A DNA stretch of 64,000 bases, from NCBI GenBank assembly GCA_016718405.1, contig JADKDJ010000035.1, positions 39,972-103,971 on the forward strand. Reading direction: 5' to 3'. Shown piece by piece: positions 20,104-46,155 of this stretch. The translations under genes and the position numbers were made by a program. The notes under the pieces were generated by a model. That model did no database searches. It was not told the origin of the DNA and saw nothing but the letters and a program-made list of their open reading frames with translations. This DNA comes from Candidatus Rhodoferax odensensis. GTDB taxonomy: Bacteria; Pseudomonadota; Gammaproteobacteria; Burkholderiales; Burkholderiaceae_C. The number at the start of each line of letters is the position of its first letter. Within the stretch, counting starts at the first letter, position 1.

Positions 20104-20104
20104 G

Positions 20105-29718: not shown

Positions 29719-31719
29719 ATGGTCCTGCTGATACTGGCGTCGAGCATCCTGCTGATCGGCGCCGGGCTTTGCCTGTTGCCGACACGCAATGCGGCGCGCG
29801 CCCGCGTCGCCATCGCTTCCCAAGTGCTGGCCACGGCGCTGGTGCTGGCGGTTGCGCTTCCGGTTCTTTTTGGTGCGCCCGAATTGAGCGCCAAACTGCC
29901 ATGGGCGTACCCGGTGGGCATATTTCGCATGCGTCTGGACGCGCTGGGCGCGTTCTTCCTGGTCTGGTCGCTGCCGATGACTTTGCTGGGCAGCCTCTAC
30001 GCCGTGGGCTACATGCGCCCCCACTTCAAAGGGCCACGCCACCTGGGCGTGCACTTTGCCCTGCTCAACCTGACTTCCATCTCTTTTGTATTGGTCTACA
30101 CCGGCGAGCACGCATTGATTTTTCTGCTCGGGTGGGAGGTGGCGGCGCTGGCCGCCTGGCTGTTGGTGATCTGGGACTACACCAACCAGAAGGTGCGCTT
30201 TGCGGGCTTCAACTACCTGGTCTCCACGCACATCGGTCTGATCTTTCTGGTGGCGGCGGTGATGATTCTCTACACCCATGCGGGCACTTGGTACCTTGGC
30301 GACTTTGGCGTCTGGCTGCACGCCAACCCAGGTCCCTTGCGCAATGCGATTTTTCTGCTGCTGGTGACCAGTTTCGGCCTCAAGTCCGCCTTCTTCCCCT
30401 TTCATTCGTGGTTGCCGCGCGCCCACGCAGCGGCACCGGCACACGTCTCCGCTCTCATGTCGGGCGTGATCCACAAGGCGGGCTTGTATGCGCTGGTGCG
30501 TTTCGTATTGCTGATCGGTCGGCCCGATGAATGGATGGGCTGGTTCCTGATTGGCTTCTCGGTCTGTTCCGCCCTGATCGGCGGCCTCTACACGGTGGGC
30601 CAGCGCGATCTGAAGCGGCTGCTGGGCTACTCGTCCACCGAAAACGTAGGCATTGCCGGCATCGGCCTGGGCGTGGGTTGCCTGGGGCTGACCTGGGGTC
30701 TGCCAACTTTGGCCGCACTCGGCTTTGCCGGCGGCCTGCTGCACATCCTGAACCATGCGTTTTTCAAGTGCCAGCTCTTCTATGCCGCGGGTGCGGTCTA
30801 CCAGACCACGCACACGGTGGACATGGAGCGCCTGGGCGGGCTGTCGCGCCTGATGCCCTGGACGGGCGTGTTTTTTCTCATCGGCGGTGTGGCGATCTCC
30901 GCCTTGCCGCCGCTCAACGGCTTCGCCAGCGAGTTCGTGATCTATTCCAGCCTGTTTGACAAGGGCTCATTCGACATCTGGGCCAAGCTCAGTCTGTGCG
31001 CCGTGGCCGCTGCGCTGGCTTTTGTGGGGGCGGTCTCGGCGCTGAGCATCACGCGTGCCTTTGGCGTCGTCTTCATGGGCGCGCCGCGCGACCCGACGCT
31101 ACCCGACGCCCACGAAGTCAATCGCTGGATGCTGCTGCCGATGGGCCTGCATGCCGTGGGCAGCGTGGTGCTGGGCGTGGTCCCGGCAGCGGGCTTTGCG
31201 CTGGTGTCCGGACCGGTTGCGCTGCTGCTGGGCGTGGCACCCAGCACGCCCAATGCCACCCTTGAACGTATCAGCGCGAGCTTGTCACGCATCGGGGCCA
31301 TCTCGGCCGTGCTGCTGGCTGGTGTACTGCTGGTGCTCTGGTGGCGCTCGCGGGTCCCGCTACGGCCTGCCCAAAGCGGTCCCACCTGGGGCTGCGGTTA
31401 CGGCAACATCAACACCCGCATGCAGTACACCGGCGCCAGTTTCTCCAACGACTTTTCGCGTCGCTTTCGCTCGGTGATGGTGTTGTTGCAGCGCAAGAAG
31501 GCGCCGCTTGGCTATTTCCCCGAGGACAGCTACGTCATTACCGATTGCGTGGACGCCGTCGAACGACGGCTCTATGCGGTCATTGGCCATGGTGACGAGT
31601 CGGCGACCCGCATCTCGAACAATCTGCACGAGGACGACCCGCGTTTTGCCTTCGCCGCCGCGCTGGTCGCCTTGCTGGTCATTGCCACGCTGGTGCGATT
31701 GGCAGGGGGCCCCCTGTGA
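29719..31719 (+). CDS. module 1: NuoL/HyfB(HycC)-like proton-conducting antiporter subunit
   Basis: 666-aa polytopic ORF. It has the signature FHSWLPRAHAAAPAHVSALMSGVIHKAG and a HyfB-type C-terminal extension (WGCGY...). Confidence 0.88.
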   Translation: MVLLILASSILLIGAGLCLLPTRNAARARVAIASQVLATALVLAVALPVLFGAPELSAKLPWAYPVGIFRMRLDALGAFFLVWSLPMTLLGSLYAVGYMRPHFKGPRHLGVHFALLNLTSISFVLVYTGEHALIFLLGWEVAALAAWLLVIWDYTNQKVRFAGFNYLVSTHIGLIFLVAAVMILYTHAGTWYLGDFGVWLHANPGPLRNAIFLLLVTSFGLKSAFFPFHSWLPRAHAAAPAHVSALMSGVIHKAGLYALVRFVLLIGRPDEWMGWFLIGFSVCSALIGGLYTVGQRDLKRLLGYSSTENVGIAGIGLGVGCLGLTWGLPTLAALGFAGGLLHILNHAFFKCQLFYAAGAVYQTTHTVDMERLGGLSRLMPWTGVFFLIGGVAISALPPLNGFASEFVIYSSLFDKGSFDIWAKLSLCAVAAALAFVGAVSALSITRAFGVVFMGAPRDPTLPDAHEVNRWMLLPMGLHAVGSVVLGVVPAAGFALVSGPVALLLGVAPSTPNATLERISASLSRIGAISAVLLAGVLLVLWWRSRVPLRPAQSGPTWGCGYGNINTRMQYTGASFSNDFSRRFRSVMVLLQRKKAPLGYFPEDSYVITDCVDAVERRLYAVIGHGDESATRISNNLHEDDPRFAFAAALVALLVIATLVRLAGGPL

Positions 31720-32639
31720 TGCCAACGCTGTTGACGCTGGTCCACGTTGCGCTGGTGCTGTGCATGCCGATTGCGCTGGTTGGCATCGTCAACCGCACCA
31801 AATCGTGGTGGGCCGGCCGCAAGGGTCCACGCTTGCTGCAATCGGCCCATGACCTGCGCCGGCTGCTGGGCAAGCGGCCTGTCTACAGCCACACTGCTGG
31901 GCGCTTGTTTGGCGCGGGCGCCTACATCACCCTGCTGGCCGGCTTGCTGGCGGCGAGCATGGTGCCGATACTAGGCGGCTTTGCGCCGCTGCAGTTCGAG
32001 CATGACTTCATCGTCGTGGCCTACGCCCTGGGGCTTGGCCGCATCGTGCTGATGCTGTCGGCGATGGACGTTGGCAGCGCGTTCGAGGGCATGGGCGCGG
32101 CGCGCGAGGCGTCTTTCACCGCATTTGTCGAGCCCGCCCTGTTTCTGCTGATCGGTACCGCCAGCGTGGCTACCGGCCACACCAGCTTCGCCAGTCTGCT
32201 GGGCGGTCTGCACGCGGCCCCCGGCTTCGGCTGGTTGGTGGCACCCGCCGTCGTCGCACTGCTCATCTTGCTGCAGGCCGAAGCCGCCCGCGTGCCGGTG
32301 GATGACCCTATGACCCACCTTGAACTCACCATGATCCACGAGGTCATGATTCTCGACCACAGCGGGCCGGAGCTGGCAGCGATGCAGTACGCGGCAGCGC
32401 TGAAGATGAGCCTGTACGCGGGCCTGATTAGCACCCTGCTCAACCCGCTGGACCCGTTCGCGGCACCGCTCGCCAGCCTGGCCATGACGCTGCTGCTAAC
32501 GAGCGGCGTGGCCGTCGCCGTCGGCTGCGTGGAGTCCCTGACGGCGCGCCTGCCGATGCGCTGGGTGCCACCTTACCTGCTGGTGGCGTCGGTGGCGGCC
32601 CTGATGTGTTGGTTACTGGTCGGCACGCTGACGCCATGA
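31716..32639 (+). CDS. module 1: NuoH/HyfC(HycD)-like membrane subunit
   Basis: 307-aa ORF. A GTGA/ATG overlap joins it to the upstream stop. The sequence EAARVPVDDPMTHLELTMIHEVMILDHSGPELA is typical of the HycD/NuoH family. Confidence 0.85.
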   Translation: MMPTLLTLVHVALVLCMPIALVGIVNRTKSWWAGRKGPRLLQSAHDLRRLLGKRPVYSHTAGRLFGAGAYITLLAGLLAASMVPILGGFAPLQFEHDFIVVAYALGLGRIVLMLSAMDVGSAFEGMGAAREASFTAFVEPALFLLIGTASVATGHTSFASLLGGLHAAPGFGWLVAPAVVALLILLQAEAARVPVDDPMTHLELTMIHEVMILDHSGPELAAMQYAAALKMSLYAGLISTLLNPLDPFAAPLASLAMTLLLTSGVAVAVGCVESLTARLPMRWVPPYLLVASVAALMCWLLVGTLTP

Positions 32640-33259
32640 CTCTCGCCATGACACCCCCGCTGAGTCTGTTTCTGGCGGCTTGCGTGCTGCCGGTTTTCTT
32701 CGCCAGGATTCGCGCCGTGCCGCTGTGGCTGGCGGTGCAGGCGCTGGCGCTGGCCTGGATCACGCTGGCGCAGCATGGCGAACTGTCCCTGCACTCACTG
32801 ACCGCTGCTGTGGAAATCGTGGCCGTGCGTGGCTGGCTGGCGCCTGCTCTGCTATGGCGAACGCTGGCAGCGCACCCATTGGCGCGCACTGACCTTATGC
32901 CGTCCAATCTGTTTGCCTGGGGCGCGGCCGTCACGGTCATCATTCTGGCCCTTGAATTCGGCATCGGCGCAAGCGTCGATGCGGGCGCATTGACGCTGGG
33001 CGCGGTCAGCGTCAGTGTCAGCGTGGCCTTGCTCATCCTGGCCACCAACGCTGCCGCGCCCGCGCAGTTGCTGGCCCTGCTGTTTATGGAAAACGCACTG
33101 GCCCTGTTCGAATCCACCATGCCAACGCCATGGCCATGGCCCGTGCACGGCGCCTTGAGCGCGGTCTATCTGCTCACGGTTGCCGTTGGCAACTGGCTGG
33201 CGGCCAGCGATAAGTCGCTGGGGACCGTGGTCGCCGAAGAAGCGAGGGACAACGCATGA
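32636..33259 (+). CDS. module 1: HyfE-like (NuoK-related) small membrane subunit
   Basis: ATG 32636 forms an ATGA overlap with the upstream stop. It has the FMENALALFES motif and four or five TM helices. Confidence 0.8.
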   Translation: MTLAMTPPLSLFLAACVLPVFFARIRAVPLWLAVQALALAWITLAQHGELSLHSLTAAVEIVAVRGWLAPALLWRTLAAHPLARTDLMPSNLFAWGAAVTVIILALEFGIGASVDAGALTLGAVSVSVSVALLILATNAAAPAQLLALLFMENALALFESTMPTPWPWPVHGALSAVYLLTVAVGNWLAASDKSLGTVVAEEARDNA

Positions 33260-34770
33260 GCGCCGCGCCGGGCCGCCCCAAGCAAGCTCGCACCGCGGCC
33301 CGTAAGGGCGAAGCTACCCCCGCGACCACGGTAAGACTGGCGGACGCCAGGCTGGCTGCGCCGACAGCGACCAGCGATTCAGCGCACCCGCGCAAATGGG
33401 TGGCGCCGGCCCTGGTGGTGGTGGCCCTGCTGGTCTGGCTGGCGGCGCTGGCGCTTTTCATCACGACGCCGCTCAGCGAATTGCCGCGCTACTTCCTGCA
33501 ACGCTATTTCGTGCTGGATGCCACCTCGCTGCTGTTTGTGTTGCTGATCAACACGGTGTTTCTGGGCATTGCGGTCTATCTGTATTCCCGTGAACGATCG
33601 TCGCGCCTGCTGGCGCAGGACATATTGCCGCGTGCCCTGTTGTCGCTGATGTTCATGCTGATCATGAATCTGGGCGTGTTGTCCAACAACCTGGTGGTGC
33701 TGTGGGCCCTGATCGAGGCCAGCACGCTGTGCGCCGCGCCGCTGGTGGCGCGCGGGGATGCCGCCAACCCGCGACAAGTGGCCTGGCGCTACATGCTGTA
33801 CTCGGCGATGTCGCTGGCCATCACCTTCCTGGGTTTTCTGTGTCTGACCGAATCGGCTCACCTGCGTGGCGTCGCGATCAGTTTCCAGGTCGATCAATTG
33901 GGCTCGGCTCTGTCGGCCTCGCCCGATCGCTGGCAGCGGCTGGGCTTGGCGCTGATGCTGTTCGGGCTGGGCAGCAAGCTGGGACTGGCGCCGCTTTACG
34001 GCTGGCTGCCAGAAACCTACGAGACTGCGCCCACCAGCACCAGCGCCTTGTTGGCGGCGGTGCAGTTCAACATCAGCGTGGTCGCGGTGTTTCGGGTGCT
34101 GCAAGTGTTCCGGGGCCAGGACGGCGGCTTTGTGTCGCAAGAGCTGCTGGTGATGGGCTGCCTGTCCCTGATCGTGGCCGCCATTCAGGTCATGGCGGCG
34201 CGCAATTACAAACGGCTGATCGCCTACGCCTGCGTCAGTTCATCCGGGGTGATCGCGATTGGCCTGTCGGTTGGCAAGGCCGCCACCTACGGGGTGGTGC
34301 TGTATGTGGTCAGCAACGCGTTTGTCAAGGCACTGCTGTTTCTGTCGGCGGGCCGCCTGCGCTCGGTCTACGGCACCAACCAGACCGCCGCGCTGACCGG
34401 TGTGATCAAGGTGCTGCCCTTCTCTGGATTGCTGTTCGCGGTGGGTATCTTCGCCCTGCTGGGCTTTCCGCCATTTGCCAGCTTTCTGGCCGAAATGCTG
34501 ATCCTCTCGGGCATTGTGCAGGCTGGCAACCTGATGGCCTTTGCCCTGTTGTGCAGCATGCTGACCATCATCTTCGTGGCCACCGGTCGCACCGTGTTCC
34601 CGATGCTGTGGGGCGCCAGCGAGCAACCCCGCGCGCCGCATCAGGAGTCGATCCTGACCATCCTGCCCAAGCTTGGATTTGTTGGCGTATTGGTGATGCT
34701 GGGCGCCTACACGCCAGAGCGAGTGAGTCGCCTGCTGGTCGTGGTGGCCGAGTCGATCGGGGGGCGATGA
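33256..34770 (+). CDS. module 1: NuoN/NuoM / HyfF-like antiporter subunit
   Basis: 504-aa ORF with an ATGA overlap at 33256. It has the sequence LGLAPLYGWLPETYETAPTSTSALLAAV. The Ala/Arg-rich N-terminal 45 aa make the start uncertain. Confidence 0.82.
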   Translation: MSAAPGRPKQARTAARKGEATPATTVRLADARLAAPTATSDSAHPRKWVAPALVVVALLVWLAALALFITTPLSELPRYFLQRYFVLDATSLLFVLLINTVFLGIAVYLYSRERSSRLLAQDILPRALLSLMFMLIMNLGVLSNNLVVLWALIEASTLCAAPLVARGDAANPRQVAWRYMLYSAMSLAITFLGFLCLTESAHLRGVAISFQVDQLGSALSASPDRWQRLGLALMLFGLGSKLGLAPLYGWLPETYETAPTSTSALLAAVQFNISVVAVFRVLQVFRGQDGGFVSQELLVMGCLSLIVAAIQVMAARNYKRLIAYACVSSSGVIAIGLSVGKAATYGVVLYVVSNAFVKALLFLSAGRLRSVYGTNQTAALTGVIKVLPFSGLLFAVGIFALLGFPPFASFLAEMLILSGIVQAGNLMAFALLCSMLTIIFVATGRTVFPMLWGASEQPRAPHQESILTILPKLGFVGVLVMLGAYTPERVSRLLVVVAESIGGR

Positions 34771-36251
34771 TGGAGATACGCGAGCCCGTCCTGGTGCTGC
34801 CCCTGCGCGAACTTGCCGTGCTGGATATGCCAGCGCTGGCGCAACGCTGCGCCGAACAATTGCAAGCGGGTGCACGGCTGGTGACCCTTTTTGGTCGGCC
34901 CGACGCCGAGGCGAGTTGGGTCGCCACTGCCATCCTGCAAGGCCCGGACGGTGAATTGACTGCCCTGCGGGCCGAGTTCCAGAGCGGTACAAGCTACCCC
35001 GGGCTGACACCACGCTTTGCGCAGGCCCAGATCCTTGAACGCGAGTTGTGGGAGCAAACCGGTATCACGCCACTTGGTCACCCCTGGCTCAAGCCGGTGC
35101 GGTTTGAGGGCACACGCCAGCAGCAGATGGCGGACTACCCCTTCTTCAAGGTGCGTGGGCAGGAGGTGCATGAGGTGGGCGTGGGCCCGATTCACGCCAG
35201 CGTGATCGAGCCGGGGCACTTTCGCTTCATGTGCCTGGGCGAGCGGGTCTACCACCTTGAAATCCAGCTGGGCTACCAGCATCGCGGCATCGAGCCGATG
35301 CTGCTACGACGCGCACCCCTGACCTTGGCCAGCACGGTGGAGTCCATCTGCGGTGACGCCTGCATCGCCTACGCGTGGGCGTATTGCTCAGCCATGGAAG
35401 CACTCGGCGATACCCCGATCCCGGCCGAGATCGAGCTGATACGCGGTGTGGCATTGGAACTCGAACGTATTGCCATGCACTTGGCCGCCCTGGGCGGCTT
35501 GGCCACCGACATTGCCTTCCTGCAAGGCGGTGCCAGCTATGGCCGCCTGCGCACCGCCATCATCAACGCCAGCATGCGGGTGTGTGGCAGCCGCTTCGGG
35601 CGTGGCTGGTTGTGCCCGGGCGGAGTCCGATTTGGCTTGACCGATGCACTGCGCCAGGATCTGGCTCAGACGCTGGGCGCGTTTGCCAGGGACATTGCCG
35701 AGGTCAACGCGTTGATGTTAGGTGCGCGCAGCGTGCAGGCGCGCTTTCAGGGTATCGGCAAGGTCAGCACGCAGGCTGCGCGGGACCTGGGCCTGGTAGG
35801 TCTGGTGGCGCGCGCCAGCGGCGTGGCACTCGATACGCGCAGCAGCCTGCCGGGCTTGCTGCACCAGCACTGGCCAATCTCCAGCCTGACCGAAAGCACG
35901 GGCGATTGCTGGGCGCGCATGCAACTGCGCATGCGCGAGATCGACACGTCCCTGACCTGGCTTGTGAACGTGCTTGGCGACCACGCGTTGGACCTGCGCG
36001 CCCAGCCGGTGCGGGTCAACCCGGCGCTGCGCCCAGACGCCTTGTGCGTGTCCCTGCGAGAGGGCACGCGCGGACCTGTGTTGCACGTGGCGGAAACCAC
36101 TGGGCAAGGCACGCTGCGGCACTACAAGGTGCAAGACCCGTCCCTGCAGAACTGGTTTGGCCTGGCGCTCGCGGTACGCGACAACGGCATTTCGGACTTT
36201 CCCATCTGCAACAAGAGCTTTGACCTCTCCTATTGCGGCAACGACCTGTAG
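34767..36251 (+). CDS. module 1: NuoC-NuoD/HycE-like large subunit without canonical NiFe CxxC pairs
   Basis: ATG 34767 (ATGA overlap) lies in the frame of ORF 33702..36251. It has GVGPIHASVIEPGHFRF and HLEIQLGYQHRGIE. At the L1 position it has ESICGDACIAY, and its C-terminus is FPICNKSFDLSYCGNDL. Confidence 0.85.
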   Translation: MMEIREPVLVLPLRELAVLDMPALAQRCAEQLQAGARLVTLFGRPDAEASWVATAILQGPDGELTALRAEFQSGTSYPGLTPRFAQAQILERELWEQTGITPLGHPWLKPVRFEGTRQQQMADYPFFKVRGQEVHEVGVGPIHASVIEPGHFRFMCLGERVYHLEIQLGYQHRGIEPMLLRRAPLTLASTVESICGDACIAYAWAYCSAMEALGDTPIPAEIELIRGVALELERIAMHLAALGGLATDIAFLQGGASYGRLRTAIINASMRVCGSRFGRGWLCPGGVRFGLTDALRQDLAQTLGAFARDIAEVNALMLGARSVQARFQGIGKVSTQAARDLGLVGLVARASGVALDTRSSLPGLLHQHWPISSLTESTGDCWARMQLRMREIDTSLTWLVNVLGDHALDLRAQPVRVNPALRPDALCVSLREGTRGPVLHVAETTGQGTLRHYKVQDPSLQNWFGLALAVRDNGISDFPICNKSFDLSYCGNDL

Positions 36252-36259
36252 GCCCTCCC

Positions 36260-37009
36260 ATGTTGAAATCCATCGCTGTACGGGTGTCACAAGGCACGCA
36301 ATACATCCCGGACCCGCGCAAGGCAAATCCGGTCGGGTTTCGCGGCAAACCCGTCATCGCAGATGCCGCGTGCGAGCCCTCTTGCGAGGCCTGCGTGACG
36401 ACCTGTCCGACCGGTGCCATCACACTCGATCCGGTTCAGATCGATCTGGGTCGCTGCACACTTTGCATGGATTGCGAGAGCGTCTGCCCCAGCGCCAAGT
36501 TCTCGTTCTCCAATGACTTCAGGCTGGCCAGCGCCGAGCGGGCCGGTCTGGTGCTGACGGCGACGCGACGCAACGTGGACCCGGTCGAAGTGTCGCAGGC
36601 GCTGCGCCAGCGCTTTGGCCGCTCGCTCAAATTACGCTCGGTGTCGGCCGGTGGCTGCAATGGCTGCGAGCTGGAGGTGAATGCCCTGGCCAACGTCAAC
36701 TTCGACATCGGCCGCTACGGCATCGACATCGTTGCCTCGCCACGGCACGCCGACGGTCTCGTGCTAACCGGCCCGATCACCCGCAACATGACCGAAGCCT
36801 TGCAGATTTGCTGGGATGCGATGCCCGCGCCCAAGCTGGTGATTGCGGTGGGCGCCTGCGCCATATCGGGCGGCCTGTTTGCGCACCAGGATGCCGTGGA
36901 TCGAGGCTTCCTGGAGCGCGTCAAACCAAGCTTGTATGTGCCCGGCTGCCCGCCCCATCCGCTGACCTTTGTCTGCGGGGTGCTTGATCTGCTGGGTATT
37001 CCGAGCTGA
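36260..37009 (+). CDS. module 1: fusion of 2x[4Fe-4S] ferredoxin (HycF/NuoI-like) with NuoB/HycG-like small subunit
   Basis: ATG 36260. The ferredoxin part has CEPSCEACVTTCP and CTLCMDCESVCP. The NuoB-like part has GGCNGCELE, GACAISGG and PGCPP. Confidence 0.85.
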   Translation: MLKSIAVRVSQGTQYIPDPRKANPVGFRGKPVIADAACEPSCEACVTTCPTGAITLDPVQIDLGRCTLCMDCESVCPSAKFSFSNDFRLASAERAGLVLTATRRNVDPVEVSQALRQRFGRSLKLRSVSAGGCNGCELEVNALANVNFDIGRYGIDIVASPRHADGLVLTGPITRNMTEALQICWDAMPAPKLVIAVGACAISGGLFAHQDAVDRGFLERVKPSLYVPGCPPHPLTFVCGVLDLLGIPS

Positions 37010-37056
37010 CGGGCACGACTGTGGACCGACGCACGGGATGAGACCGCAGCCACGGG

Positions 37057-38232: not shown

Positions 38233-38327
38233 ACAATTTGCATATATAAAATTCATATTGTATAGAAATCAGTCTTGAAGTCCATCCCGAGTGGCGGCTT
38301 CAAGTCGGGGCGGTCGCGCCCGCTGGT

Positions 38328-38840
38328 TCAGGCTCGCCGGCGCACCGCGCTCAGGATGCCGCGCAGAATCTCCAGCGGTGGCGGCGGGCAGCCCGACACC
38401 AGCACATCCACCGGGATCACATTGGCCACCGCGCCACAACTGGCGTAACTCTCGCCAAAAATGCCGCCATCACAACCACAGTCGCCCACCGCCACCACCA
38501 GCTTGGGAGAAGGCGTGGCGTCATAGGTACGCTTGAGCGCTTCTTCCATGTGGCGCGACACCGGCCCGGTCACCAGCAGCAGATCGGCATGGCGCGGACT
38601 GGCGACAAACTTGAGGCCCAGCCCCTCAATGTTGTAGTAGGGATTGGTCAACGCGTGAATCTCCAGTTCACAGCCATTGCAGGAGCCGGCATCCACCATG
38701 CGAATCGCCAGCGCCTGGCCCAGAATCTCCAACAATTCGCGCCCGATCGCCTGCGCCTGCGCGCGCTGGTTCTCGTCGAATGCGGGCGGCGCCTCCGTGC
38801 GAATTCCGTTGACCGCGATCTGGCGAATGATCTTCCACAT
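38328..38840 (-). CDS. module 2: NuoB/HycG-like small subunit
   Basis: ATG 38840 (ATGA overlap with the large-subunit stop) lies within ORF 38328..38948. It has GSCNGCELE, GDCGCDGG and SGCPPPP. Confidence 0.85.
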   Translation of the reverse strand: MWKIIRQIAVNGIRTEAPPAFDENQRAQAQAIGRELLEILGQALAIRMVDAGSCNGCELEIHALTNPYYNIEGLGLKFVASPRHADLLLVTGPVSRHMEEALKRTYDATPSPKLVVAVGDCGCDGGIFGESYASCGAVANVIPVDVLVSGCPPPPLEILRGILSAVRRRA

Positions 38841-40372
38841 CAGAGGTCGTGCCCCGAGTAACTGAGGTTGAAGGACTTGTTGATCAACGGAAAGTCCGGC
38901 ACGATGTTGCCAATCACCGCGTGCTCCAGCACCGGCCAGTTTTGCCACGAGGGGTCATGGCAGTGGCAGCGGCGGATTCGTTGTGGCTGCCCTGCATCGG
39001 CCAGCTCCAGCGCCACCAACACTTCGCCGCGCCAGCCCTCGACCCAACCGGCACCAAACGCGGCTGGCGGTGGCAGCGGCACAGCAGTGTGAACCGGCCC
39101 GGGCGTCAAACTCTCCAGAAGCGTCTGCATCAGGCGCAAGGACTCGGCCAACTCCTCGAACCGGACGATCACGCGGGCCGCCACATCACCGCCACGGTGC
39201 GTCACCATACGCGCCTGCAAGCGGTCATAAGGCGGCACGGCATGGTCGCAGCGCACGTCCCAAGCTTGCCCGCTGGCGCGCCCGGCCAGGCCGGTCAGAC
39301 CAAGTTGCGCCGCCAGGCCCGGCATGACCCGCCCGGTTGTCAAAAAGCGGTCCTGCAGACCCGCGTGCTCGTCGTAGATGACCCTCAGCGCCTGCACCTC
39401 GCGAGCGATGGCTTCGCCATGCTGGCGCAGTTGATCGACCTGCGCCGTATCAATATCGCTAGCCACGCCACCTGGGACGATGCGGTCCATCATCAGACGG
39501 TGCCCAAACACCTGGCCCGACCGGCGCAGCCAGTCTTCGCGCAGGCGCGAGAACTGCGCCAGACCAAAAGCGAATGCGGCGTCGTTGCCGAGGGCACCGA
39601 GGTCAGCCAGGTGGGCTGCCACGCGTTCGCGCTCCAACATCAGCGCGCGCAGCTCCGCCGCGCGGGCCGGCACCTCGACACCGCAGGCGGACTCCAGCGC
39701 CATGCAATAGGCCCAGGCATAGGCCACGGTGGAGTCGCCCGACACACGGCCCGCCAAACGGTGAGCCTGCAAGGGGTCGAGCTGCGTGAAGCGCCGCTCA
39801 ATCCCCTTGTGGGTGTAGCCCAGGTGTTGCTCCAGCCGCAGCACCTTCTCGCCCACCACCGAGAAGCGGAAATGCCCCGGCTCGATGATGCCCGCGTGCA
39901 CCGGACCCACCGCGATTTCATGCACGCCGTCGCCTTGCACCCGCACAAAGGGATAGCCACCGGGCGGCGTCCCCGCCGCCCAATTGCATGCCTCGTCAAG
40001 CAAGGGCGGCCGCGCGCCAAGCCACAAACCATGGTCGAGCCAAGGCCGACTGTCCAGGCTGGACGCGGCCTGCAGCCCATTTAGGTCCGCCAAGGCCCGC
40101 TGCATGCGGCTAGCGGCCGGAAATATGCCAGCCAGGTCGGGATAGACCCGTTCGGGGGGGCTAAGCACCAGCTCCAGCCAGAGCAAGCCTTCCAGCACGG
40201 CATAGGCCACCGATACCGCCACCCGATCCGCCGCGGTCACCCCCCACACCGCTACCAGTCGCCCGCCACCCTGGCGCACCGCCATGGCTGTGCTCAGCCA
40301 TTGGTCGGCGCTGACAAGGCCACGCCAGATTGGCGCCGCGCCGGGCAGACGTTGCAGGTCCAGGTCCATCAT
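38840..40372 (-). CDS. module 2: NuoC-NuoD/HycE-like large subunit with no cysteines at the NiFe-ligand positions
   Basis: ATG 40372 (ATGA overlap). It has AVGPVHAGIIEPGHFRF and LEQHLGYTHKGIE. At the L1 position it has GRVSGDSTVAY (39725..39745), and its C-terminus is FPLINKSFNLSYSGHDL. Confidence 0.85.
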   Translation of the reverse strand: MMDLDLQRLPGAAPIWRGLVSADQWLSTAMAVRQGGGRLVAVWGVTAADRVAVSVAYAVLEGLLWLELVLSPPERVYPDLAGIFPAASRMQRALADLNGLQAASSLDSRPWLDHGLWLGARPPLLDEACNWAAGTPPGGYPFVRVQGDGVHEIAVGPVHAGIIEPGHFRFSVVGEKVLRLEQHLGYTHKGIERRFTQLDPLQAHRLAGRVSGDSTVAYAWAYCMALESACGVEVPARAAELRALMLERERVAAHLADLGALGNDAAFAFGLAQFSRLREDWLRRSGQVFGHRLMMDRIVPGGVASDIDTAQVDQLRQHGEAIAREVQALRVIYDEHAGLQDRFLTTGRVMPGLAAQLGLTGLAGRASGQAWDVRCDHAVPPYDRLQARMVTHRGGDVAARVIVRFEELAESLRLMQTLLESLTPGPVHTAVPLPPPAAFGAGWVEGWRGEVLVALELADAGQPQRIRRCHCHDPSWQNWPVLEHAVIGNIVPDFPLINKSFNLSYSGHDL

Positions 40373-42270
40373 CGCCCGACGCCCCCCAACATGCCAGCGG
40401 CCTGAACGTACCATTGGTTCAAGTAAGGCGGAATGAACAGGCCCAGCACCAACCCCAGACCAAGATGAACGAACACCGGTAGCAAGGCCGGTGGATGCGC
40501 CAGCGGTTTGAGCGAGGTTTCGCCAAACACCATCGGCAACACGCGCACCAGCACCGAGGCAAAGGCCAGACCCAGCGCGAAGAACAGGAATGGCGCGGCC
40601 CAGGGCTGCTCGCGCATGGCGGTGGTCAAAATCAAAAACTCGCTGGCAAACACGCCAAAAGGCGGCATGCCCAGGATTGCCATGACGCCCAGCATCATTC
40701 CCCAGCCCACTCTCGGGTTGACCTTGATTAGACCGCGAATTTCACTCATCACCTGGGTCCCGGCCTTCTGCGCCGCATGCCCGACGGTGAAGAAGATGGC
40801 CGACTTGATCAACGAGTGCACCGTCATGTGCAACAGCCCCGCAAAGTTGGCCACCGGCCCGCCCATTCCAAAAGCAAACATGATCAGACCCATGTGTTCG
40901 ATCGACGAGTACGAAAACATGCGCTTGACGTCCTTCTGGCGCGACAGGAAAAAGGCCGCCACCACCAGCGACAGTAGGCCAAAACCCATCATCAATTGCC
41001 CAGCCAGTGGCCGCTGCAAGGCGCCATCGGTCAACACCTTGCAGCGCAGCAGCGCGTACATCGCCACATTGAGCAGCAGACCCGACAGCACGGCGGACAC
41101 CGGCGTAGGCCCTTCGGCATGCGCGTCGGGCAGCCAGCTGTGCAGCGGCACCATGCCGACCTTGGTGCCGTAGCCGATAAACAGGAAAGCAAACGCCAGC
41201 GTGATGATGTGCGGATCGAGCTGGGATTTGACCGCATCCAGATTCGTCCACAGCAGCGCGCCGCCTTCGGGGCCCACCACCTTTTCCGCCGCCATGTAAA
41301 GCAAAATGGTGCCGAACAGGGCCAGGGCGATGCCAACACCGCACAGAATGAAGTACTTCCAGGCCGCCTCCAGGCTGGCCGGTGTGCGGTAGACACTAAC
41401 CAGCAGCACGGTGGTGAGCGTCGCTGCCTCCATCGCGACCCACAGAATACCCAGGTTGTTCGTGGTCAGGCCCAGCAGCATGGTGCAACTGAACAACTGG
41501 TACATGCCGTGGTACAGGCGCATGCGCGGCGGAGTCATCTTGCCGTGGTCTTGCTCAACACGCATGTAGGGCCGCGAGAAAATGGCCGTGGTGAGGCCGA
41601 CAAACGCTGTCAAGGTGACCATGAAGACGTTCAGCGGGTCAATAAAGAGGCTGTCGAACTGCTCGCGAATCTGGAACATGAAGACGCCCCGAATCAGCAC
41701 ACCGACCAGCACGTCGAGCGCAACACCAAACTCCACAATCATTGGCATGCCATTGGTGACGGTGGTGGCCGCAAAAATCAAGCCGTTTTCCATCGACAAA
41801 AAGCCGATCACCTGCGGCACCGCCTTGGACCGGGTGATCATCATCAGGAAGGACAGCAGCACGCAGGCCAACGCGATGCCCAGCGAGCCACCGGCCATCG
41901 AACTGGACAAGCGAGAGATGGGCAGCGCCAGGCTGAACGAGAAGATCACCAGCCCAATCCCGACCAGCATGGTGGTTGGGATGTTGATCAGGGTCTCCAC
42001 ATCCCAGCGCACGTTCAATCGACGAACGACCACGTGCAGCAGCCACGGAATCAACATGACTTTGAGCACCAGCGTCAAGGCCGCCGACACGTAGAGTTCA
42101 TTCTGGTGCGTGACGTAGCCAAGCAGCACGGAGGCAATCACCAGCGCCAGGCCCTGCAGCATGAACAGGTTGATCAGCGACACAATGCGTCGCTGCGAGA
42201 TCATGGCGAAGGACAGCAACAGGATCACGGTGGCGCACAGGTTGATCAATTGCGGGATGTACTTCATCAC
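40369..42270 (-). CDS. module 2: fused HyfE-like + NuoN/HyfF-like membrane subunit
   Basis: 633-aa ORF. The N-terminal ~215 aa are HyfE-like (FLSMENGLIFAATT). The rest is antiporter-like (VPLHSWLPDAHAEGPTPVSAVLSGLLLNVA). A GTG/ATG start overlaps the upstream stop. Confidence 0.85.
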   Translation of the reverse strand: MMKYIPQLINLCATVILLLSFAMISQRRIVSLINLFMLQGLALVIASVLLGYVTHQNELYVSAALTLVLKVMLIPWLLHVVVRRLNVRWDVETLINIPTTMLVGIGLVIFSFSLALPISRLSSSMAGGSLGIALACVLLSFLMMITRSKAVPQVIGFLSMENGLIFAATTVTNGMPMIVEFGVALDVLVGVLIRGVFMFQIREQFDSLFIDPLNVFMVTLTAFVGLTTAIFSRPYMRVEQDHGKMTPPRMRLYHGMYQLFSCTMLLGLTTNNLGILWVAMEAATLTTVLLVSVYRTPASLEAAWKYFILCGVGIALALFGTILLYMAAEKVVGPEGGALLWTNLDAVKSQLDPHIITLAFAFLFIGYGTKVGMVPLHSWLPDAHAEGPTPVSAVLSGLLLNVAMYALLRCKVLTDGALQRPLAGQLMMGFGLLSLVVAAFFLSRQKDVKRMFSYSSIEHMGLIMFAFGMGGPVANFAGLLHMTVHSLIKSAIFFTVGHAAQKAGTQVMSEIRGLIKVNPRVGWGMMLGVMAILGMPPFGVFASEFLILTTAMREQPWAAPFLFFALGLAFASVLVRVLPMVFGETSLKPLAHPPALLPVFVHLGLGLVLGLFIPPYLNQWYVQAAGMLGGVGR

Positions 42271-43217
42271 CCCACCCCCAGCAAGATGTTCACCAGCAAG
42301 CCAATCACCGCCAGCAGGAACGCGGTAGCCAAAAACTCGGGCACGCGGAAGATCCGCATCTTGGCGCTGAAGGTTTCAACCAGCGCCAGCAACATGCCCC
42401 CAATGGCGAGCTTTCCTACCAGCGCCGGCAAGGCCATGATCAGCGCCAAGGGCGCATCCGCCTCGGCCACGCCCCACGGGAAAAACAGCGCCAGGCCGAT
42501 GCACGAGTAGGCAAATAGCTTGAGGCTGGCGGCCCACTCCAGCAACGCCAGATGGCGCCCGGAGTATTCCAGAATCAGCGCCTCGTGAATCATCGTGAGT
42601 TCCAGGTGCGTTTCCGGGTTGTCCACCGGGACACGAGCGTTTTCCGCCAACGACACCATGGTGAAGGCCACGCCCGCCACCAGCAGGCTGGGGTAAATTG
42701 CCAGCTCCCTGTGCGCAAGCGTCTCGACAATGGTGGTCAACGAGGTGGACTTTGAAATCATGGATGCGCAAAACAGCACCATCAGCAACGCGGGCTCCGC
42801 CAGAAACCCCACCAGCATGTCGCGGCGCGCGCCCAGGCCGCCAAAGGCGGTGCCGATGTCCATCGCCGCCAGGGAAGCAAAGACACGGGCCAGTGCAAAC
42901 AGACCGACCAGGGCAATCGCGTCCGCCGCGGGGGACAGCGGCAGGTCGGTCGATAGCGTGGGCACAATGGCGCACGCCAGCACCATGCAGCCAAAGCTGA
43001 TGTAGGGAACCATCCGAAACAGGGACGAAGCCTGCTCGGCCACCACCGATTCCTTGTGAAACAGCTTGCGCAATACCCGATAGGGCTGCAACAGGCCCGG
43101 CGCCGACTTGTTCTGCAAGCGGGCGCGCCACTGGTTGACCCAGCCCGTCAGCAGCGGTGCCAGCAGCAGCGCCGCCACAATCGCCATCAGTTGCGAGAAC
43201 AGGCCCAGAAGACTCAT
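42267..43217 (-). CDS. module 2: NuoH/HyfC(HycD)-like membrane subunit
   Basis: ATG 43217 (ATGA overlap) lies within ORF 42267..43358. It has ENARVPVDNPETHLELTMIHEALILEYSGRHLA. Confidence 0.85.
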   Translation of the reverse strand: MSLLGLFSQLMAIVAALLLAPLLTGWVNQWRARLQNKSAPGLLQPYRVLRKLFHKESVVAEQASSLFRMVPYISFGCMVLACAIVPTLSTDLPLSPAADAIALVGLFALARVFASLAAMDIGTAFGGLGARRDMLVGFLAEPALLMVLFCASMISKSTSLTTIVETLAHRELAIYPSLLVAGVAFTMVSLAENARVPVDNPETHLELTMIHEALILEYSGRHLALLEWAASLKLFAYSCIGLALFFPWGVAEADAPLALIMALPALVGKLAIGGMLLALVETFSAKMRIFRVPEFLATAFLLAVIGLLVNILLGVG

Positions 43218-45238
43218 TGCTGGACCACCAGCAAGACCACGATCAGGGTCACGAAGCTGTACAACAAATAGACCGCGATGCGGCCCCGCTGCAAGCGGCC
43301 AACCAGGCGCGACAGACGCTCGACAAAAGCCGCCACCGGCAGGTACAGCGCCCGCCACATCGGGTCCTCGACGGTGACGCGGTAAGCCGGGTCGGTATCG
43401 AAAGGGCTCGGCAACTCACGCGTCATGCGAAACATCGGCTCGAAGATCTGGCGTATCGGTTGGCCAAAGCCCTCCGCGCTATCCTGCATGCGGGGGGTCT
43501 GCAGCGCAAAGCCGCAATCCCAGGGCGGCGCGCGCCGCGTGCGCCCGTGGTAGAACCGGCGCACCAGAAAATAGGCCAGTGCGAAGCTGGCCAGCACACC
43601 CAACAGGAAAATGACGGGCGCGTAGCTGGCGCGCTCGGCATTCACCGGCACCAGCAACCAGTCGGCGGTCGTCAAGGATTGCGGCAGCGCGTCGGAAACC
43701 AGCAGGCGCGTGACCGGTCGAATCAAGGCAATGACCTGGTTAGGCAACAGCCCCAACACCACGCAACCGGCCGCCAGCCAGAGCATACCCACGCGTTCCC
43801 AGAACCCGGCGTCATGGGCTCGGGTCAGCTTCTCCTCGCGCGGCTGCCCCAGGAAGATGACCCCAAAGTACTTGACCATGGTGTAGCCCGACAGCGCCGC
43901 AATCAACGCGATCAGGGCCGCCACCACCGGTACCAGCATGTTCAAAAAAGAACTTGGCAAACCCGTGGTGAACAGAAAGCTCTGCAGCAGCAACCACTCC
44001 GCCACAAAACCGCCGAGCGGTGGCAAGCCGGCACAGGCCAAAGCGCCAATCAGCGTTGGCCAGGCGACCCAGGGCATGTAGCGGATCAGGCCTCCGAGCT
44101 TGCCCAGGCTGCGCTCGCCGGTGGCATGCAAAACCGAGCCGGTGCTGCAAAAAAGCAGGCTCTTGAACACACCGTGGCTGAGCGCATGGTAGAGCGACGC
44201 CGTCAGCGCCAAGGCCGCCGGACCGGTCATGCCGTAGGCCGAGAACAACAGGGCCAGCCCGAAGCCGGCACACATCAGCCCGATGTTCTCGATCGACGAA
44301 TAGGCCAGCAAACGTTTCATCTCGACCTGCACCGTGGAGAACACCACGCCGAACAGCGCAGTGGCCAGACCCAAGGTCATCAACAGCACGCCCCACCACC
44401 AAATGCGCGTCTGCAACAGGTCGAACGAGATGCGCAGCAAGCCATACAGGGCAATCTTCAGCATCACGCCACTCATCAGCGCAGAGAAAGGCGATGGCGC
44501 CGCCGGATGCGCCTCGGGCAGCCAAGCGTGCAAGGGCACAATGCCGGCCTTGGCACCGAAGCCGAACACCGCCAGCACAAAGGCGACCGAACCCCAGAAC
44601 GGCGACAGGTGCTGCGCACGCATGTTGGCAAAGGTGTAGTCGCCCGTGTTGGCCTGAAGCACCCCGAAGCACAGCAGGATGCCCAGCGCGCCAATGTGGG
44701 CCACCAGCATGTACAGGTAGGCCGCGTTGCGGATTTCGGGAATGCGGTGGTTCGCCATCACCAAGAAAAAAGAAGACAGCGCCATGGTCTCCCAGACGAC
44801 CATGAACACATACGCGTCATCGGCCATCACCACCATGGCGATGCTGGCCAGGAATACGTGGTACTCCAGGCAGATCAGGCCGGGTGGCGTGCCCTCGCCC
44901 TTGCGAAAGTAGCCCGCCGCAAACGCCGACACGCCCGTCGATACCCCGCCGATGAGCAGCAGGAAGAAGGCCGACAGGCCATCCAGACGCAGATGGAAAG
45001 GCAACTGCGGCAGGCCGATGGGCAGCACCGCAACCTCGGGCGTCCCCAGCGCCGCGTTGAAGGCCACCACGAGCAGGACCAGCGAGCACAACGCGCTCAG
45101 GGGGAACAGCACGGTGGCGATCAGCCGCAGCCGCCACAAAGCCACCACGCCGTCGCAGCCTATCAGCAACCAGGCCACAACCACCACCAACACCCAGTCG
45201 AGATGCACCCAGCCGGACGGCATCACCAAGGCGCTCAT
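43214..45238 (-). CDS. module 2: NuoL/HyfB(HycC)-like proton-conducting antiporter subunit
   Basis: 674-aa ORF. It has VPLHAWLPEAHPAAPSPFSALMSGVMLKIA and a HyfB-type C-terminal extension (PPWDCGF...). Confidence 0.88.
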   Translation of the reverse strand: MSALVMPSGWVHLDWVLVVVVAWLLIGCDGVVALWRLRLIATVLFPLSALCSLVLLVVAFNAALGTPEVAVLPIGLPQLPFHLRLDGLSAFFLLLIGGVSTGVSAFAAGYFRKGEGTPPGLICLEYHVFLASIAMVVMADDAYVFMVVWETMALSSFFLVMANHRIPEIRNAAYLYMLVAHIGALGILLCFGVLQANTGDYTFANMRAQHLSPFWGSVAFVLAVFGFGAKAGIVPLHAWLPEAHPAAPSPFSALMSGVMLKIALYGLLRISFDLLQTRIWWWGVLLMTLGLATALFGVVFSTVQVEMKRLLAYSSIENIGLMCAGFGLALLFSAYGMTGPAALALTASLYHALSHGVFKSLLFCSTGSVLHATGERSLGKLGGLIRYMPWVAWPTLIGALACAGLPPLGGFVAEWLLLQSFLFTTGLPSSFLNMLVPVVAALIALIAALSGYTMVKYFGVIFLGQPREEKLTRAHDAGFWERVGMLWLAAGCVVLGLLPNQVIALIRPVTRLLVSDALPQSLTTADWLLVPVNAERASYAPVIFLLGVLASFALAYFLVRRFYHGRTRRAPPWDCGFALQTPRMQDSAEGFGQPIRQIFEPMFRMTRELPSPFDTDPAYRVTVEDPMWRALYLPVAAFVERLSRLVGRLQRGRIAVYLLYSFVTLIVVLLVVQQ

Positions 45239-45360
45239 TCGCCTACACCCACAACAACGACCAGCACAGTCAACGACATGGCAACATCATGTTACAGGCC
45301 CCGCCTGGCGTCAATTGTCTCCACCATGCAGGTTGTGGCTACCGCGCACAACCGTTGGCG

Positions 45361-46155
45361 TCACCGTACCAGTTCGGGGGCAAACAGGCTCAGCCCGTCG
45401 CGCACTTGCTCCAGCGACAGACCGGCCAGCGCGACCCTGCGGGTCAGGCGCATCGGTCGAGCCGTCTGCAAGCGCGGCATCACCAACAAGACGCACAGCT
45501 CGGCCTCATCACCGCGCATCAGACGTTTGTGCGCAAGCACGCCTTGCCAAACCGAATCGTGTGGATCAACCTGCGGCAACAGGGTGACGCAGATGGTCCG
45601 CCTGTCGCAAAGAAAGACCGCGGCACTGAATGGCTCTGAAGTGGGGTCCACACTCAACTCGCCCCCGTCGAACAAGGGGTCCGCCTTTAGGATACGGTGC
45701 AGCATTTCCGCCAGGCTATAACGCATGGTCTCGGCGGGCAACAACCGCAGGGGTTCTGGGTGCCGCGTAAGCCCCCCCAAGCCAAGCAAGGCGTCGCAGC
45801 CGTCGTAACGCTCACAGGAGAGCCCCCAGTCCGGCTCCGTCTCACACGCTGCCATCACCTGTTTGGTGTCTTCGGCTACATAGCAAACAGCGTCGAGCCA
45901 CTCCATGGCTCGCTCAAAAACCCGGCTCATGTCGAATGCCTCGGGAAACTGCCGAATGAAGGGTAGCGGGTCGATCGCGCCGGCCGTGCTGTGCATCAGC
46001 GGTGATGCCAGATGCACCCGCTGCCCGTCGCGCCAAATCACGGCGCAAACATGCCCGTTTGTTGAGCCGGGCGGGCGGAATCTGACGAGCTTGAGCGCGC
46101 GCCGACCGGAAGGCGAGTCAGGCGTCTGGGTCGTTGCTCGCGGGCGCAGCGCCAT
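45361..46155 (-). CDS. hypothetical protein, no recognisable family; first gene upstream of module 2
   Basis: 264-aa ORF with coding-like composition, co-directional with its neighbours. It lies 19 nt after the OmpA-like gene and 122 nt before the HyfB-like gene. The start is uncertain. Confidence 0.55.
   Translation of the reverse strand: MALRPRATTQTPDSPSGRRALKLVRFRPPGSTNGHVCAVIWRDGQRVHLASPLMHSTAGAIDPLPFIRQFPEAFDMSRVFERAMEWLDAVCYVAEDTKQVMAACETEPDWGLSCERYDGCDALLGLGGLTRHPEPLRLLPAETMRYSLAEMLHRILKADPLFDGGELSVDPTSEPFSAAVFLCDRRTICVTLLPQVDPHDSVWQGVLAHKRLMRGDEAELCVLLVMPRLQTARPMRLTRRVALAGLSLEQVRDGLSLFAPELVR

Follow-up and report, generated by a model that had tools for sequence, protein, structure and literature searches.

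Two convergent operons for complex-I-like membrane proteins lacking NiFe ligands in Candidatus Rhodoferax odensensis

The operons and their products

A pair of operons for proteins related to complex I and to group-4 hydrogenases lies in a 64,000-nt stretch of the Candidatus Rhodoferax odensensis assembly GCA_016718405.1 (contig JADKDJ010000035.1, positions 39,972–103,971), referred to here as the window. Module 1 has six genes on the + strand (29719–37009) and module 2 has five genes on the − strand (45238–38328). The two modules face each other tail to tail and are separated by a single open reading frame (ORF) at 37057–38256 (−). In the original prediction, made from the DNA letters and their ORFs alone, both modules had been placed in the energy-converting hydrogenase-related (Ehr) class. 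The coordinates, gene layout and tail-to-tail arrangement given there were borne out by the ORF listing and translation, as was the placement of an ATPase gene (AAA_14 and DUF4143 domains) alone between the modules. The genes of the two modules, labelled M1 and M2, are the following.

29719..31719, + strand: M1_L, HyfB/NuoL-like antiporter-like subunit, 666 aa (PF00361, E 9.5e-53)
31716..32639, + strand: M1_H, HyfC/HycD/NuoH-like subunit, 307 aa (PF00146, E 1.9e-22)
32636..33259, + strand: M1_E, HyfE-like subunit, 207 aa (profile–profile comparison)
33256..34770, + strand: M1_N, HyfF/NuoN-like antiporter-like subunit, 504 aa (PF00361, E 7.4e-39)
34767..36251, + strand: M1_CD, NuoC-NuoD/HycE-like large subunit without NiFe ligands, 494 aa
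36260..37009, + strand: M1_B, 2x[4Fe-4S] ferredoxin (NuoI/HycF-like) fused to a NuoB/HycG-like subunit, 249 aa (PF01058, Fer4)
38328..38840, − strand: M2_B, NuoB/HycG/HyqI-like small subunit without a ferredoxin domain, 170 aa (PF01058, E 3.5e-30)
38840..40372, − strand: M2_CD, NuoC-NuoD/HycE/HyqG-like large subunit without NiFe ligands, 510 aa
40369..42270, − strand: M2_E-F, HyfE-HyfF fusion, 633 aa (NCBIfam, and mapping of the E and F proteins of Polaromonas JS666)
42267..43217, − strand: M2_H, HyfC/HycD/NuoH-like subunit, 316 aa (PF00146, E 2.7e-35)
43214..45238, − strand: M2_L, HyfB/NuoL-like subunit, 674 aa (PF00361; NCBIfam)

The predicted family assignments of all 11 proteins agree with Pfam, NCBIfam and Protein Data Bank (PDB) matches or, in the case of M1_E, with profile–profile comparison. 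M1_E gave no match in the Pfam search; its alignment with HyfE (hhalign) has a probability of 97.5% and an E value of 7e-12, and a MEN(G/A) motif is common to both. Against the NCBIfam family ‘hydrogenase 4 subunit B’, M2_L scores 911 bits, over the cut-off of 667, and M1_L 472 bits, under it. Residues 198–630 of M2_E-F reach 815 bits against ‘hydrogenase 4 subunit F’ (cut-off 543), which is also the top NCBIfam family of M1_N, at a score under its cut-off. The F-type genes of both modules carry PF00361, and both large subunits contain PF00329 and PF00346 domains (Pfam).

The junction at 31716 is a GTGA overlap, those at 32636, 33256, 34767, 43214 and 40369 are ATGA overlaps, and that at 42267 is GTGA or, under an ATG start, TGATG. 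An 8-nt gap between M1_CD and M1_B is the sole non-overlapping junction within either operon. The tight coupling claimed earlier, with its one gap in module 1, therefore stands, except that the M2_CD/M2_B junction at 38840, previously read as a 4-nt overlap, is TGATG with an overlap of 1 nt. Both modules are intact, translationally coupled operons of the HyfB/C/E/F/G/I-like type.

The former NiFe site, the iron–sulfur clusters and selection

Neither large subunit contains the L1 motif RxCGxCxxxH, with its two Ni/Fe-ligating cysteines, or the L2 motif DPCxxCxxR/H with the peptide that an endopeptidase removes. In alignment with HycE of Escherichia coli (7z0s_E), the L1 segment RVCGICGFAH corresponds to SICGDACIAY in M1_CD and RVSGDSTVAY in M2_CD, and the L2 segment DPCYSCTDR corresponds to DLSYCGNDL and NLSYSGHDL, each directly followed by the stop. 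None of the four NiFe cysteines is kept in M2_CD, and only the first (C195) in M1_CD, at a position that varies within the module-1 family. Because both large subunits end right after the L2 position, there is no C-terminal processing extension. The predicted lack of the canonical motifs is thus confirmed by the HycE alignment, with C195 as the one cysteine that M1_CD retains. The window had also been described as devoid of hyp maturation genes and of an endopeptidase; likewise, a Pfam scan of 62 window ORFs (the 11 module proteins, the ATPase and 50 others) found no hyp or HycI family. Neither module can hold a NiFe centre, and therefore neither is a conventional hydrogenase.

HycE is the top PDB sequence match of both large subunits (E 8e-41 for M1_CD and 6e-54 for M2_CD), and MbhL and Nqo4 match both less well. 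AlphaFold models of M1_CD and M2_CD (pLDDT 72 and 68, respectively) have 7z0s_E as their first fold match (E 2.9e-23 and TMq 0.76 for M1_CD; E 3.9e-23 and TMq 0.65 for M2_CD), followed in both cases by E. coli NuoCD and then by MbhL and Nqo4. The structural alignment to HycE, MbhL and Nqo4/NuoD that had been proposed as a check accordingly ranks HycE best for both proteins, and there is no CxxC pair in either. The models confirm the fold; the loop and tail at the former site are unreliable in them, and no geometry of the site was deduced.

The segments that replace L1 and L2 are themselves conserved. In M2_CD both are near-invariant among 120 homologues, and the tail of M1_CD, CNKSFDLSYCGNDL, is kept across the module-1 family. 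Within that family the first L1 cysteine position is occupied by C, A or V and the SYC cysteine by C, S or A; nearly all members have the Cys of P(I/L)CNKSF, this motif itself having been among the scan patterns. Four cysteines of M1_CD (C195, C199, C481 and C490) lie near the former site, with wide conservation for C481 only. A new family-level metal site formed by these residues was considered and rejected, since C195, C199 and C490 vary.

The small subunits had been predicted to keep the cysteines of the proximal [4Fe-4S] cluster, and alignment to MbhJ and HycG agrees. In M1_B these are C133, C136, C200 and C230, aligned with the cluster cysteines of both references, and in M2_B all four positions are kept as C54, C57, C121 and C151. 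For the small subunits of both modules, MbhJ ranks just above HycG among solved structures (for M2_B, E 4.5e-37 and 1.5e-33, respectively). The motif alignments and the conserved NuoB cysteines thus support complexes that would bind no NiFe centre and yet keep the proximal cluster. Additionally, residues 7–104 of M1_B match Fer4 and families of the HycF/HyfH/NuoI type and contain two complete ferredoxin motifs (C38/42/45/49 and C66/69/72/76).

Both modules combine a small subunit bearing the proximal-cluster cysteines with a NuoH-like subunit and antiporter-like membrane subunits. All four antiporter-like domains contain the Glu of transmembrane helix (TM) 5, the Lys of TM7 and the Lys of TM12; at the TM8 position both HyfB-like subunits have Lys and both HyfF-like subunits have Asn. 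M2_L matches HycC (7z0s_C) with an E value of 8e-64 and M2_H matches HycD (7z0s_D) with 2.5e-44, and the acidic loop of the NuoH-like subunits, VDxPxTHLEL, aligns with the acidic loop DLAEAEQEL of HycD.

A sister Rhodoferax metagenome-assembled genome (GCA_016718155.1) carries a locus, L086, that is collinear with window positions 27606–53733. Ratios of nonsynonymous to synonymous substitution rates (dN/dS), calculated by the Nei-Gojobori method between the window and L086, are 0.07–0.14 in 10 of the 11 module genes and 0.37 in M1_H, where dS is only 0.02; the comparison genes MetG and ScpA give 0.09 and 0.10. Both modules are under purifying selection, with dN/dS of about 0.1. Intact ORFs, gene overlaps, dN/dS and near-invariant motifs together indicate that the module genes are functional rather than decaying. 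As a separate observation, dS is 0.02–0.05 over M1_L to M1_N (29719–34770) and 0.13–0.39 in MetG, M1_B, module 2 and the downstream genes. Given low values in the first group and higher ones around it, recent recombination or transfer over the 5′ two-thirds of module 1 is suggested.

Separate versus fused E and F subunits had been cited as an architectural difference between the modules. This point did not hold, as relatives of module 2 have E (~219 aa) and F (~484 aa) as separate genes, and L086 carries 226 extra nt at the E–F junction and likewise separate genes. E residues 7–214 and F residues 63–486 of Polaromonas JS666 map onto M2_E-F; the 226-nt loss comprises the spacer together with the last part of E and ~62 residues from the start of F (two predicted helices), with an in-frame junction at 41650–41660. 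The exact junction was not found in metagenome contigs, nor was the exact fused protein in a collection of 15 billion proteins, though the product of the neighbouring gene is present there. A homology search returned sporadic ‘fused’ E-F proteins with junctions unlike that of the window. With no independent match of the junction, this assembly is the only source for the fusion. The absent protein record may reflect a pseudogene annotation or an assembly artefact, and the fusion itself is best described as a private 226-nt deletion of uncertain consequence.

One or both modules might instead be evolutionary relics, non-functional remnants of a former hydrogenase that are drifting to loss. Ehr has been called non-functional in Geobacter KN400 (PMC13194489), and the deletion, the missing record of the fused protein and several 1-nt indels in module 2 of L086 would be consistent with decay. 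However, those indels may be assembly errors, the deletion preserves the reading frame and takes out an even number of helices, dN/dS is low in both modules, near-invariant motifs are found in thousands of homologues, and Geobacter growing on formate contains Ehr subunits in abundance (PMC7894505). Decay of this kind is thus considered very improbable.

Two lineages, their relatives and a proposed mode of action

Proteins of module 1 and module 2 are 27–45% identical, and at the DNA level there is essentially no similarity beyond short patches. In a neighbour-joining tree the module-1 clade has 100% bootstrap support, module 2 and Rhizobium HyqG form another clade with 100%, and the NiFe-less sequences part from HycE, MbhL and Nqo4 in 98% of bootstraps. 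The named references in the tree include Rhizobium HyqG, HycE, MbhL and Nqo4; the Ehr class itself was reportedly defined by Marreiros 2013. These figures agree with the earlier view of two distinct modules rather than a recent duplication; near-identity of their DNA, which had been named as evidence to the contrary, was checked, and short similar patches were all that appeared. The modules are thus ancient paralogues.

A genome scan with the module-1 large subunit yielded 80 loci in Betaproteobacteria, Myxococcota, Planctomycetota, Spirochaetota, Melainabacteria (Gastranaerophilales), Bacteroidota/Ignavibacteria, Synergistota, Desulfobacterota, Elusimicrobiota and others. Throughout these loci the cassette L-H-E-N-CD-(ferredoxin)NuoB recurs with a fused ferredoxin-NuoB gene of ~245 aa, and the ferredoxin domain, put forward earlier as a difference between the modules, is therefore a true family trait. 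Melainabacteria, Spirochaetota and Lentisphaerae, to which PMC6349859 ascribes Ehr, are represented in the module-1 clade. Module-2-type operons occur in Polaromonas JS666, Cupriavidus (including C. campinensis), Variovorax and Rhizobium. Each module has at least several thousand large-subunit relatives across many phyla.

Operons of the two types stand in tandem in Piscinibacter (loci L003 and L007), Methylibium (L012) and plasmid 3 of Variovorax sp. PBL-E5 (L089), and in L011, L086 and the window they are neighbours in convergent orientation. Module 2 was not found within 9 kb of module-1 loci L004, L005, L008 and L013, nor module 1 within 10 kb of the module-2 loci of JS666 and C. campinensis. 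Comamonadaceae thus appear often to keep both distinct machines side by side. In the window two deeply diverged Ehr/Hyq subtypes coexist in one genome with both under selection, which argues that they are not redundant, and a ferredoxin-wired subtype (module 1) can now be told apart from a Hyq-like subtype (module 2). The pair is present in the cultured Variovorax sp. PBL-E5 and Piscinibacter caeni MQ-18, and module 2 occurs alone in the genetically tractable Cupriavidus and Polaromonas JS666.

Both modules have the gene content of Ehr complexes (group-4-like large and small subunits, NuoH-like and antiporter-like subunits), and both large subunits lack the CxxC pairs, the absence of which defines the class (PMC6349859, PMC10284858). 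Ehr of Geobacter (ehrABCDLS), Melainabacteria/Margulisbacteria, Nitrospira and Methylacidiphilum resembles them in its group-4-like subunits without NiFe cysteines and in its antiporter-like subunits. For the Ehr of Margulisbacteria/Saganbacteria, a partner of formate dehydrogenase (FDH) and NuoEF has been proposed; no such partner lies beside the cassette in the 80 loci examined. The modules would thus belong to the known Ehr/Hyq class, recognised since 2005–2013, whose complexes fall, in evolutionary terms, between membrane hydrogenases and complex I. The assignment of both modules to the Ehr type is upheld by the loss of the NiFe ligands and the retention of the NuoB cluster; the accompanying statement that no role is established for the class has to be modified in light of the Azorhizobium Hyq papers. 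What the window adds is an example of two diverged subtypes kept together, and no new kind of system.

As judged from sequence comparison, Rhizobium Hyq is the closest experimentally linked relative of module 2. The six structural proteins of Hyq (Azorhizobium, rhizobia) come in the order B, C, E, F, G, I, as in module 2; HyqI is a short NuoB-like protein without a ferredoxin domain, and the large subunit lacks either CxxC pair and has the L1 segment GR(T/V)SGDSTVAY and the tail NKSFN.SYSGHDL. Identities between Rhizobium Hyq and module 2 are 45–57% for the five proteins that match over their full length (48% for HyqG and M2_CD, 57% for HyqI and M2_B), with 40% for HyqE and the E half of the fusion, and C55/58/122/152 of Rhizobium HyqI correspond to C54/57/121/151 of M2_B. 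All HyqG proteins lack both CxxC motifs yet have three completely conserved cysteines, C258, C491 and C497 (PMC3357923; C259/491/497 in Rhizobium). At these positions M2_CD has G262, I497 and L503, and M1_CD has A246, C481 and L487; Hyq-like proteins without even the three HyqG-conserved cysteines thus occur in beta-proteobacteria. Hyq also has an XRE-type hyqR as its first gene (HTH_3 in Rhizobium HyqR), and none lies upstream of module 2 (45238). Unlike Hyq, module 2 has no NifA/sigma-54 motif upstream of 45238, and an RHH_9 gene is found 3.5 kb away instead. The Rhizobium Hyq locus is without the spermidine-synthase-like genes and the 264-aa gene described below, and in the window E and F are fused.

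In Azorhizobium caulinodans the Cys-less hyqRBCEFGI operon is NifA-dependent, loss of hyqRBCEFGI together with hupSL raises nodule H2 evolution from ~0.3 to 27 µmol per g per h, and Hyq-dependent H2 evolution is reported below 1 µM O2, all from the Ludwig laboratory (PMC2650096, PMC2930871, PMC3357923). A link of this relative to the quinone pool has been proposed. These results, together with the 45–57% identity and the common 100% clade, raise the possibility of an unconventional hydrogenase (a Hyq ‘endo-hydrogenase’), in which at least module 2 would turn over H2 at a non-NiFe site, coupled to the quinone pool and to proton translocation. Such activity is nevertheless judged decidedly unlikely. 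The NiFe ligands and all three HyqG cysteines are missing from M2_CD, the NifA or sigma-54 motif was not found upstream of module 2, and the H2 evidence is physiological and from one laboratory, the enzyme never having been purified; its authors call a NiFe site ‘uncertain, if not unlikely’ (Azorhizobium Hyq papers).

The hyfBCEFGI clusters of Cupriavidus metallidurans CH34 (Rmet_4666-4671), C. necator H16 (H16_A2196-2201) and Polaromonas JS666 correspond to module 2 as orthologues. Their large subunits are 67–71% identical to M2_CD with identical motifs, and the loci have the same RHH_9 and spermidine-synthase-like neighbours, with E and F separate. The Cupriavidus cluster has been described as an ‘incomplete’ operon, unlikely to serve lithotrophy (PMC2864759). 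Module 2 has thus been annotated in Cupriavidus for about two decades already.

Among solved structures, E. coli formate hydrogenlyase (FHL; HycBCDEFG, 7Z0S) and Hyf are the best match for the subunits compared, with HycE, HycC and HycD ranking first, and FHL has the EPGHFR loop and the fusion of NuoC with NuoD in common with the modules. Unlike FHL, the modules lack NiFe ligands and a C-terminal processing peptide, and their operons encode neither a HycB nor an FdhF module. Module 1 carries the HycF function as a fusion with NuoB and module 2 does not have it, and at TM7 the module subunits have lysine in place of the leucine of HycC. Complex I differs in that the modules are without NuoA, NuoJ, NuoK and a separate NuoI, have two antiporter-like subunits each as against three, and have a HyfE-type protein as their only small membrane subunit. 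The mycobacterial Rv0082-Rv0087 type, represented here by a plasmid of Rhodococcus sp. WAY2, is also NiFe-less, with six matching proteins and the tail NKSFNLSYAGNDL; its gene order begins with NuoB, and it falls outside both the M1 and the M2 clades.

The comparisons raise the possibility, given about an even chance here, that the modules are two paralogous Ehr/Hyq complexes acting as minimal complex-I-like, redox-coupled ion pumps. The membrane arm would consist of HyfB-like and HyfF-like pumps, the NuoH-like subunit and the HyfE subunit, and the peripheral arm of the fused NuoC-NuoD/HycE-like subunit and the NuoB-like subunit with one [4Fe-4S] cluster. Electrons would travel through the NuoB cluster towards or away from a site where CD, NuoB and NuoH meet, rebuilt from invariant Ehr-specific residues (the L1 Gly-Asp and the NKSF(N/D)LSY tail). 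Conformational and electrostatic changes could then be relayed by the conserved EPGHFR loop and the acidic loop of NuoH to the chain of lysines and glutamates in the antiporter-like subunits, and protons or cations would be moved across the membrane, reversibly. Since a 2x[4Fe-4S] domain is fused to NuoB, electron exchange between module 1 and a soluble carrier of low potential (such as ferredoxin or flavodoxin) would be expected, with the NuoI/HycF-like domain as the entry wire. Module 2 has no such wire and would be the beta-proteobacterial counterpart of hyfBCEFGI/Hyq. Electron-coupled ion movement is inferred as the most likely working principle.

Several points weigh against pumps of this kind. 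The substrate site is not readable from sequence, and module 2 has no visible electron route into its single cluster. Model confidence falls below a pLDDT of 50 at residues 109–174 and 471–494 of M1_CD and at 137–189 and 476–510 of M2_CD, which are the site-forming loop and tail. In both large subunits, as in HycE, Ile and Gly occupy the positions of the Nqo4 residues His38 and Tyr87, which are quinone ligands of complex I. Riflemargulisbacteria with Ehr are reported to be without quinone biosynthesis (PMC6349859), so that a quinone acceptor cannot be general. The E-F deletion, by removing ~62 HyfF residues in two predicted helices, may impair module 2, and the Azorhizobium genetics point to H2 as the substrate of the module-2 relative (Hyq papers).

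In aerobic Burkholderiales without a fermentative source of low-potential reductant, the same anatomy might also run backwards, the membrane potential lifting electrons from a quinol or another mid-potential donor to the level of ferredoxin or flavodoxin. The ferredoxin-like domain of module 1 would then be the exit wire. The hosts are mostly aerobes or microaerophiles, and the Hyq relative belongs to the nif regulon, its loss slowing diazotrophic growth in Azorhizobium. However, the window holds no ferredoxin, flavodoxin, nitrogenase or other ferredoxin-consuming gene or pathway close to the modules, cassettes of the module-1 type are frequent among strict fermenters that already over-produce reduced ferredoxin, and the direction is not readable from sequence. 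Reverse electron flow is therefore regarded as unlikely.

Surrounding genes in the window and in related loci

Genes other than those of the modules that bear on the interpretation are the following.

17227-20178, − strand: molybdopterin FDH alpha subunit of the FdhA/FdsA type, 983 aa (TIGR01591, 683.8 bits, cut-off 666)
37057-38256, − strand: AAA_14+DUF4143 ATPase (Pfam), between the operons
45361..46155, − strand: conserved 264-aa protein without a family (no Pfam or NCBIfam match)
46904..48641, − strand: two spermidine-synthase-like genes (PF01564; PRK04457-type, 239 bits, under the cut-off)
48774..48965, + strand: RHH_9 ribbon-helix-helix regulator (PF19839, E 4.9e-22)

The ATPase gene, apparently a recent insertion, is missing from L086, where the operons lie 88 nt apart. 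An independent 2.5-kb ENA contig (L001) carries it, and an exact look-up of its protein gave no record; an exact look-up of M2_CD found that protein on a 2.5-kb contig only.

Homologues of the 264-aa protein are a 283-aa protein encoded beside the operon of Polaromonas JS666 (E 2e-27) and the products of two genes at the Variovorax locus; proteins of 264–283 aa thus accompany module-2-type operons in Burkholderiales. Spermidine-synthase-like homologues flank such operons in JS666, Cupriavidus, Variovorax, Piscinibacter and Methylibium; in the window the distal gene of the two (46904–47672) is split across two frames. The window RHH_9 gene lies ~3.5 kb from module 2, and its Burkholderiales paralogues immediately precede the L gene of module-2-type operons, whereas in the module-1 type they lie upstream of L in divergent orientation. 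L086 is without a 3.8-kb block (45316–49075) that holds the 264-aa gene, an OmpA-family gene, the two spermidine-synthase-like genes and the RHH_9 gene. The regions upstream of the two modules were screened for patterns of the sigma-54, FNR and NifA-UAS types and for CTGCATG as a common word, and none is conserved across relatives.

A broader proposal would join modules 1 and 2 with the RHH_9, spermidine-synthase-like and 264–283-aa proteins into a conserved, coupled two-engine island of Comamonadaceae with a chemistry that is neither that of H2 nor that of classical quinones. Module 1 would draw its electrons from a soluble carrier of low potential, module 2 would trade them with the membrane pool, and the reaction would occur at the rebuilt Gly-Asp/NKSF.LSY site; the linkage elsewhere to SulP and EIIA(Ntr) genes, described below, would point to an anion- or ion-linked substrate. 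This island is put forward as a highly doubtful idea.

The original prediction stated that the window contains no FdhF-type partner. This was not upheld, as the FDH alpha gene at 17227–20178 scores 683.8 bits with TIGR01591. Its product has a NuoG-like region with 2Fe-2S/4Fe-4S sites at the N-terminus in addition to a molybdopterin domain, and the gene is flanked by a GNAT gene and a 304-aa ORF without a family; FdsB/G-type genes are not visible beside it. The gene lies 9.5 kb from module 1, with DsbA, ApbC, patatin, GGDEF and MetG genes between. A role as dedicated partner was rejected, since FDH is not syntenic with Ehr in the loci examined; no match occurs in the 80 module-1-type loci, and none is listed in the gene tables of five module-2/Hyq loci. 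An ApbC/Mrp Fe-S carrier gene is found near metG (window 23293–29438). The metG gene itself adjoins module 1 at both L011 and L086, and in Polaromonas JS666 it adjoins the operon of the module-2 type, which probably reflects a conserved chromosomal neighbourhood rather than functional linkage.

Around the 80 module-1-type loci no recurring dehydrogenase partner was found. In 28 of them (e.g. L019, L022, L047 and L053, at about 4.2–5.0 kb) a gene for an HTH_17+PTS-EIIA-2 (Ntr-type) protein abuts L on the same strand, and in ~10 (e.g. L016/L017) a SulP-family anion transporter gene stands before the HTH_17+EIIA gene or directly before L. This linkage extends over many non-proteobacterial phyla, and no mention of it was found in the Ehr/Hyq literature examined. 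In Gastranaerophilales (L021, L043, L049; small-subunit gene at about 11.4–12.2 kb) the ferredoxin domain fused to NuoB has lost several cysteines; it has a first motif of the form C-x4-CP and a second without the final CP, and retains cysteines for about one cluster instead of two.

Features of this neighbourhood could also fit a cation/proton antiporter or ion-homeostasis device that is redox-independent or redox-gated, with the peripheral arm as sensor or scaffold. The lack of a conserved dehydrogenase partner, the EIIA and SulP genes in the same operon, universal stress protein genes beside the Variovorax and Rhizobium operons, and the gut Melainabacteria version without one ferredoxin cluster all favour such a device, and Ehr has been listed among candidate pH-homeostasis systems in Methylacidiphilum (PMC6688271). 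However, the four NuoB cysteines are strictly conserved, most members have both ferredoxin motifs, and the rebuilt active-site motifs are strictly conserved beyond the needs of a scaffold, so that an antiporter of this sort is seen as rather unlikely. The EIIA/SulP linkage, the missing dehydrogenase partner, the one-cluster domain of Gastranaerophilales and the quinone-less hosts argue against a universal quinone acceptor.

Some other genes in the window are unrelated to the modules. Two PIN-domain genes and a ParE-family toxin gene, parts of toxin-antitoxin modules, lie at 55172–56624 and 62512–62898, and a WYL-domain regulator is encoded at 9650–10603. Another NiFe-less complex-I-like gene set is found at 2.9–14.4 kb of a Burkholderia cenocepacia plasmid (NZ_CP073671.1; L091). 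It includes a 360-aa ‘nickel-dependent hydrogenase large subunit’ ending in AGCAR, with DUF190, inorganic diphosphatase and crcB genes as neighbours, and looks to be in a fluoride-response context.

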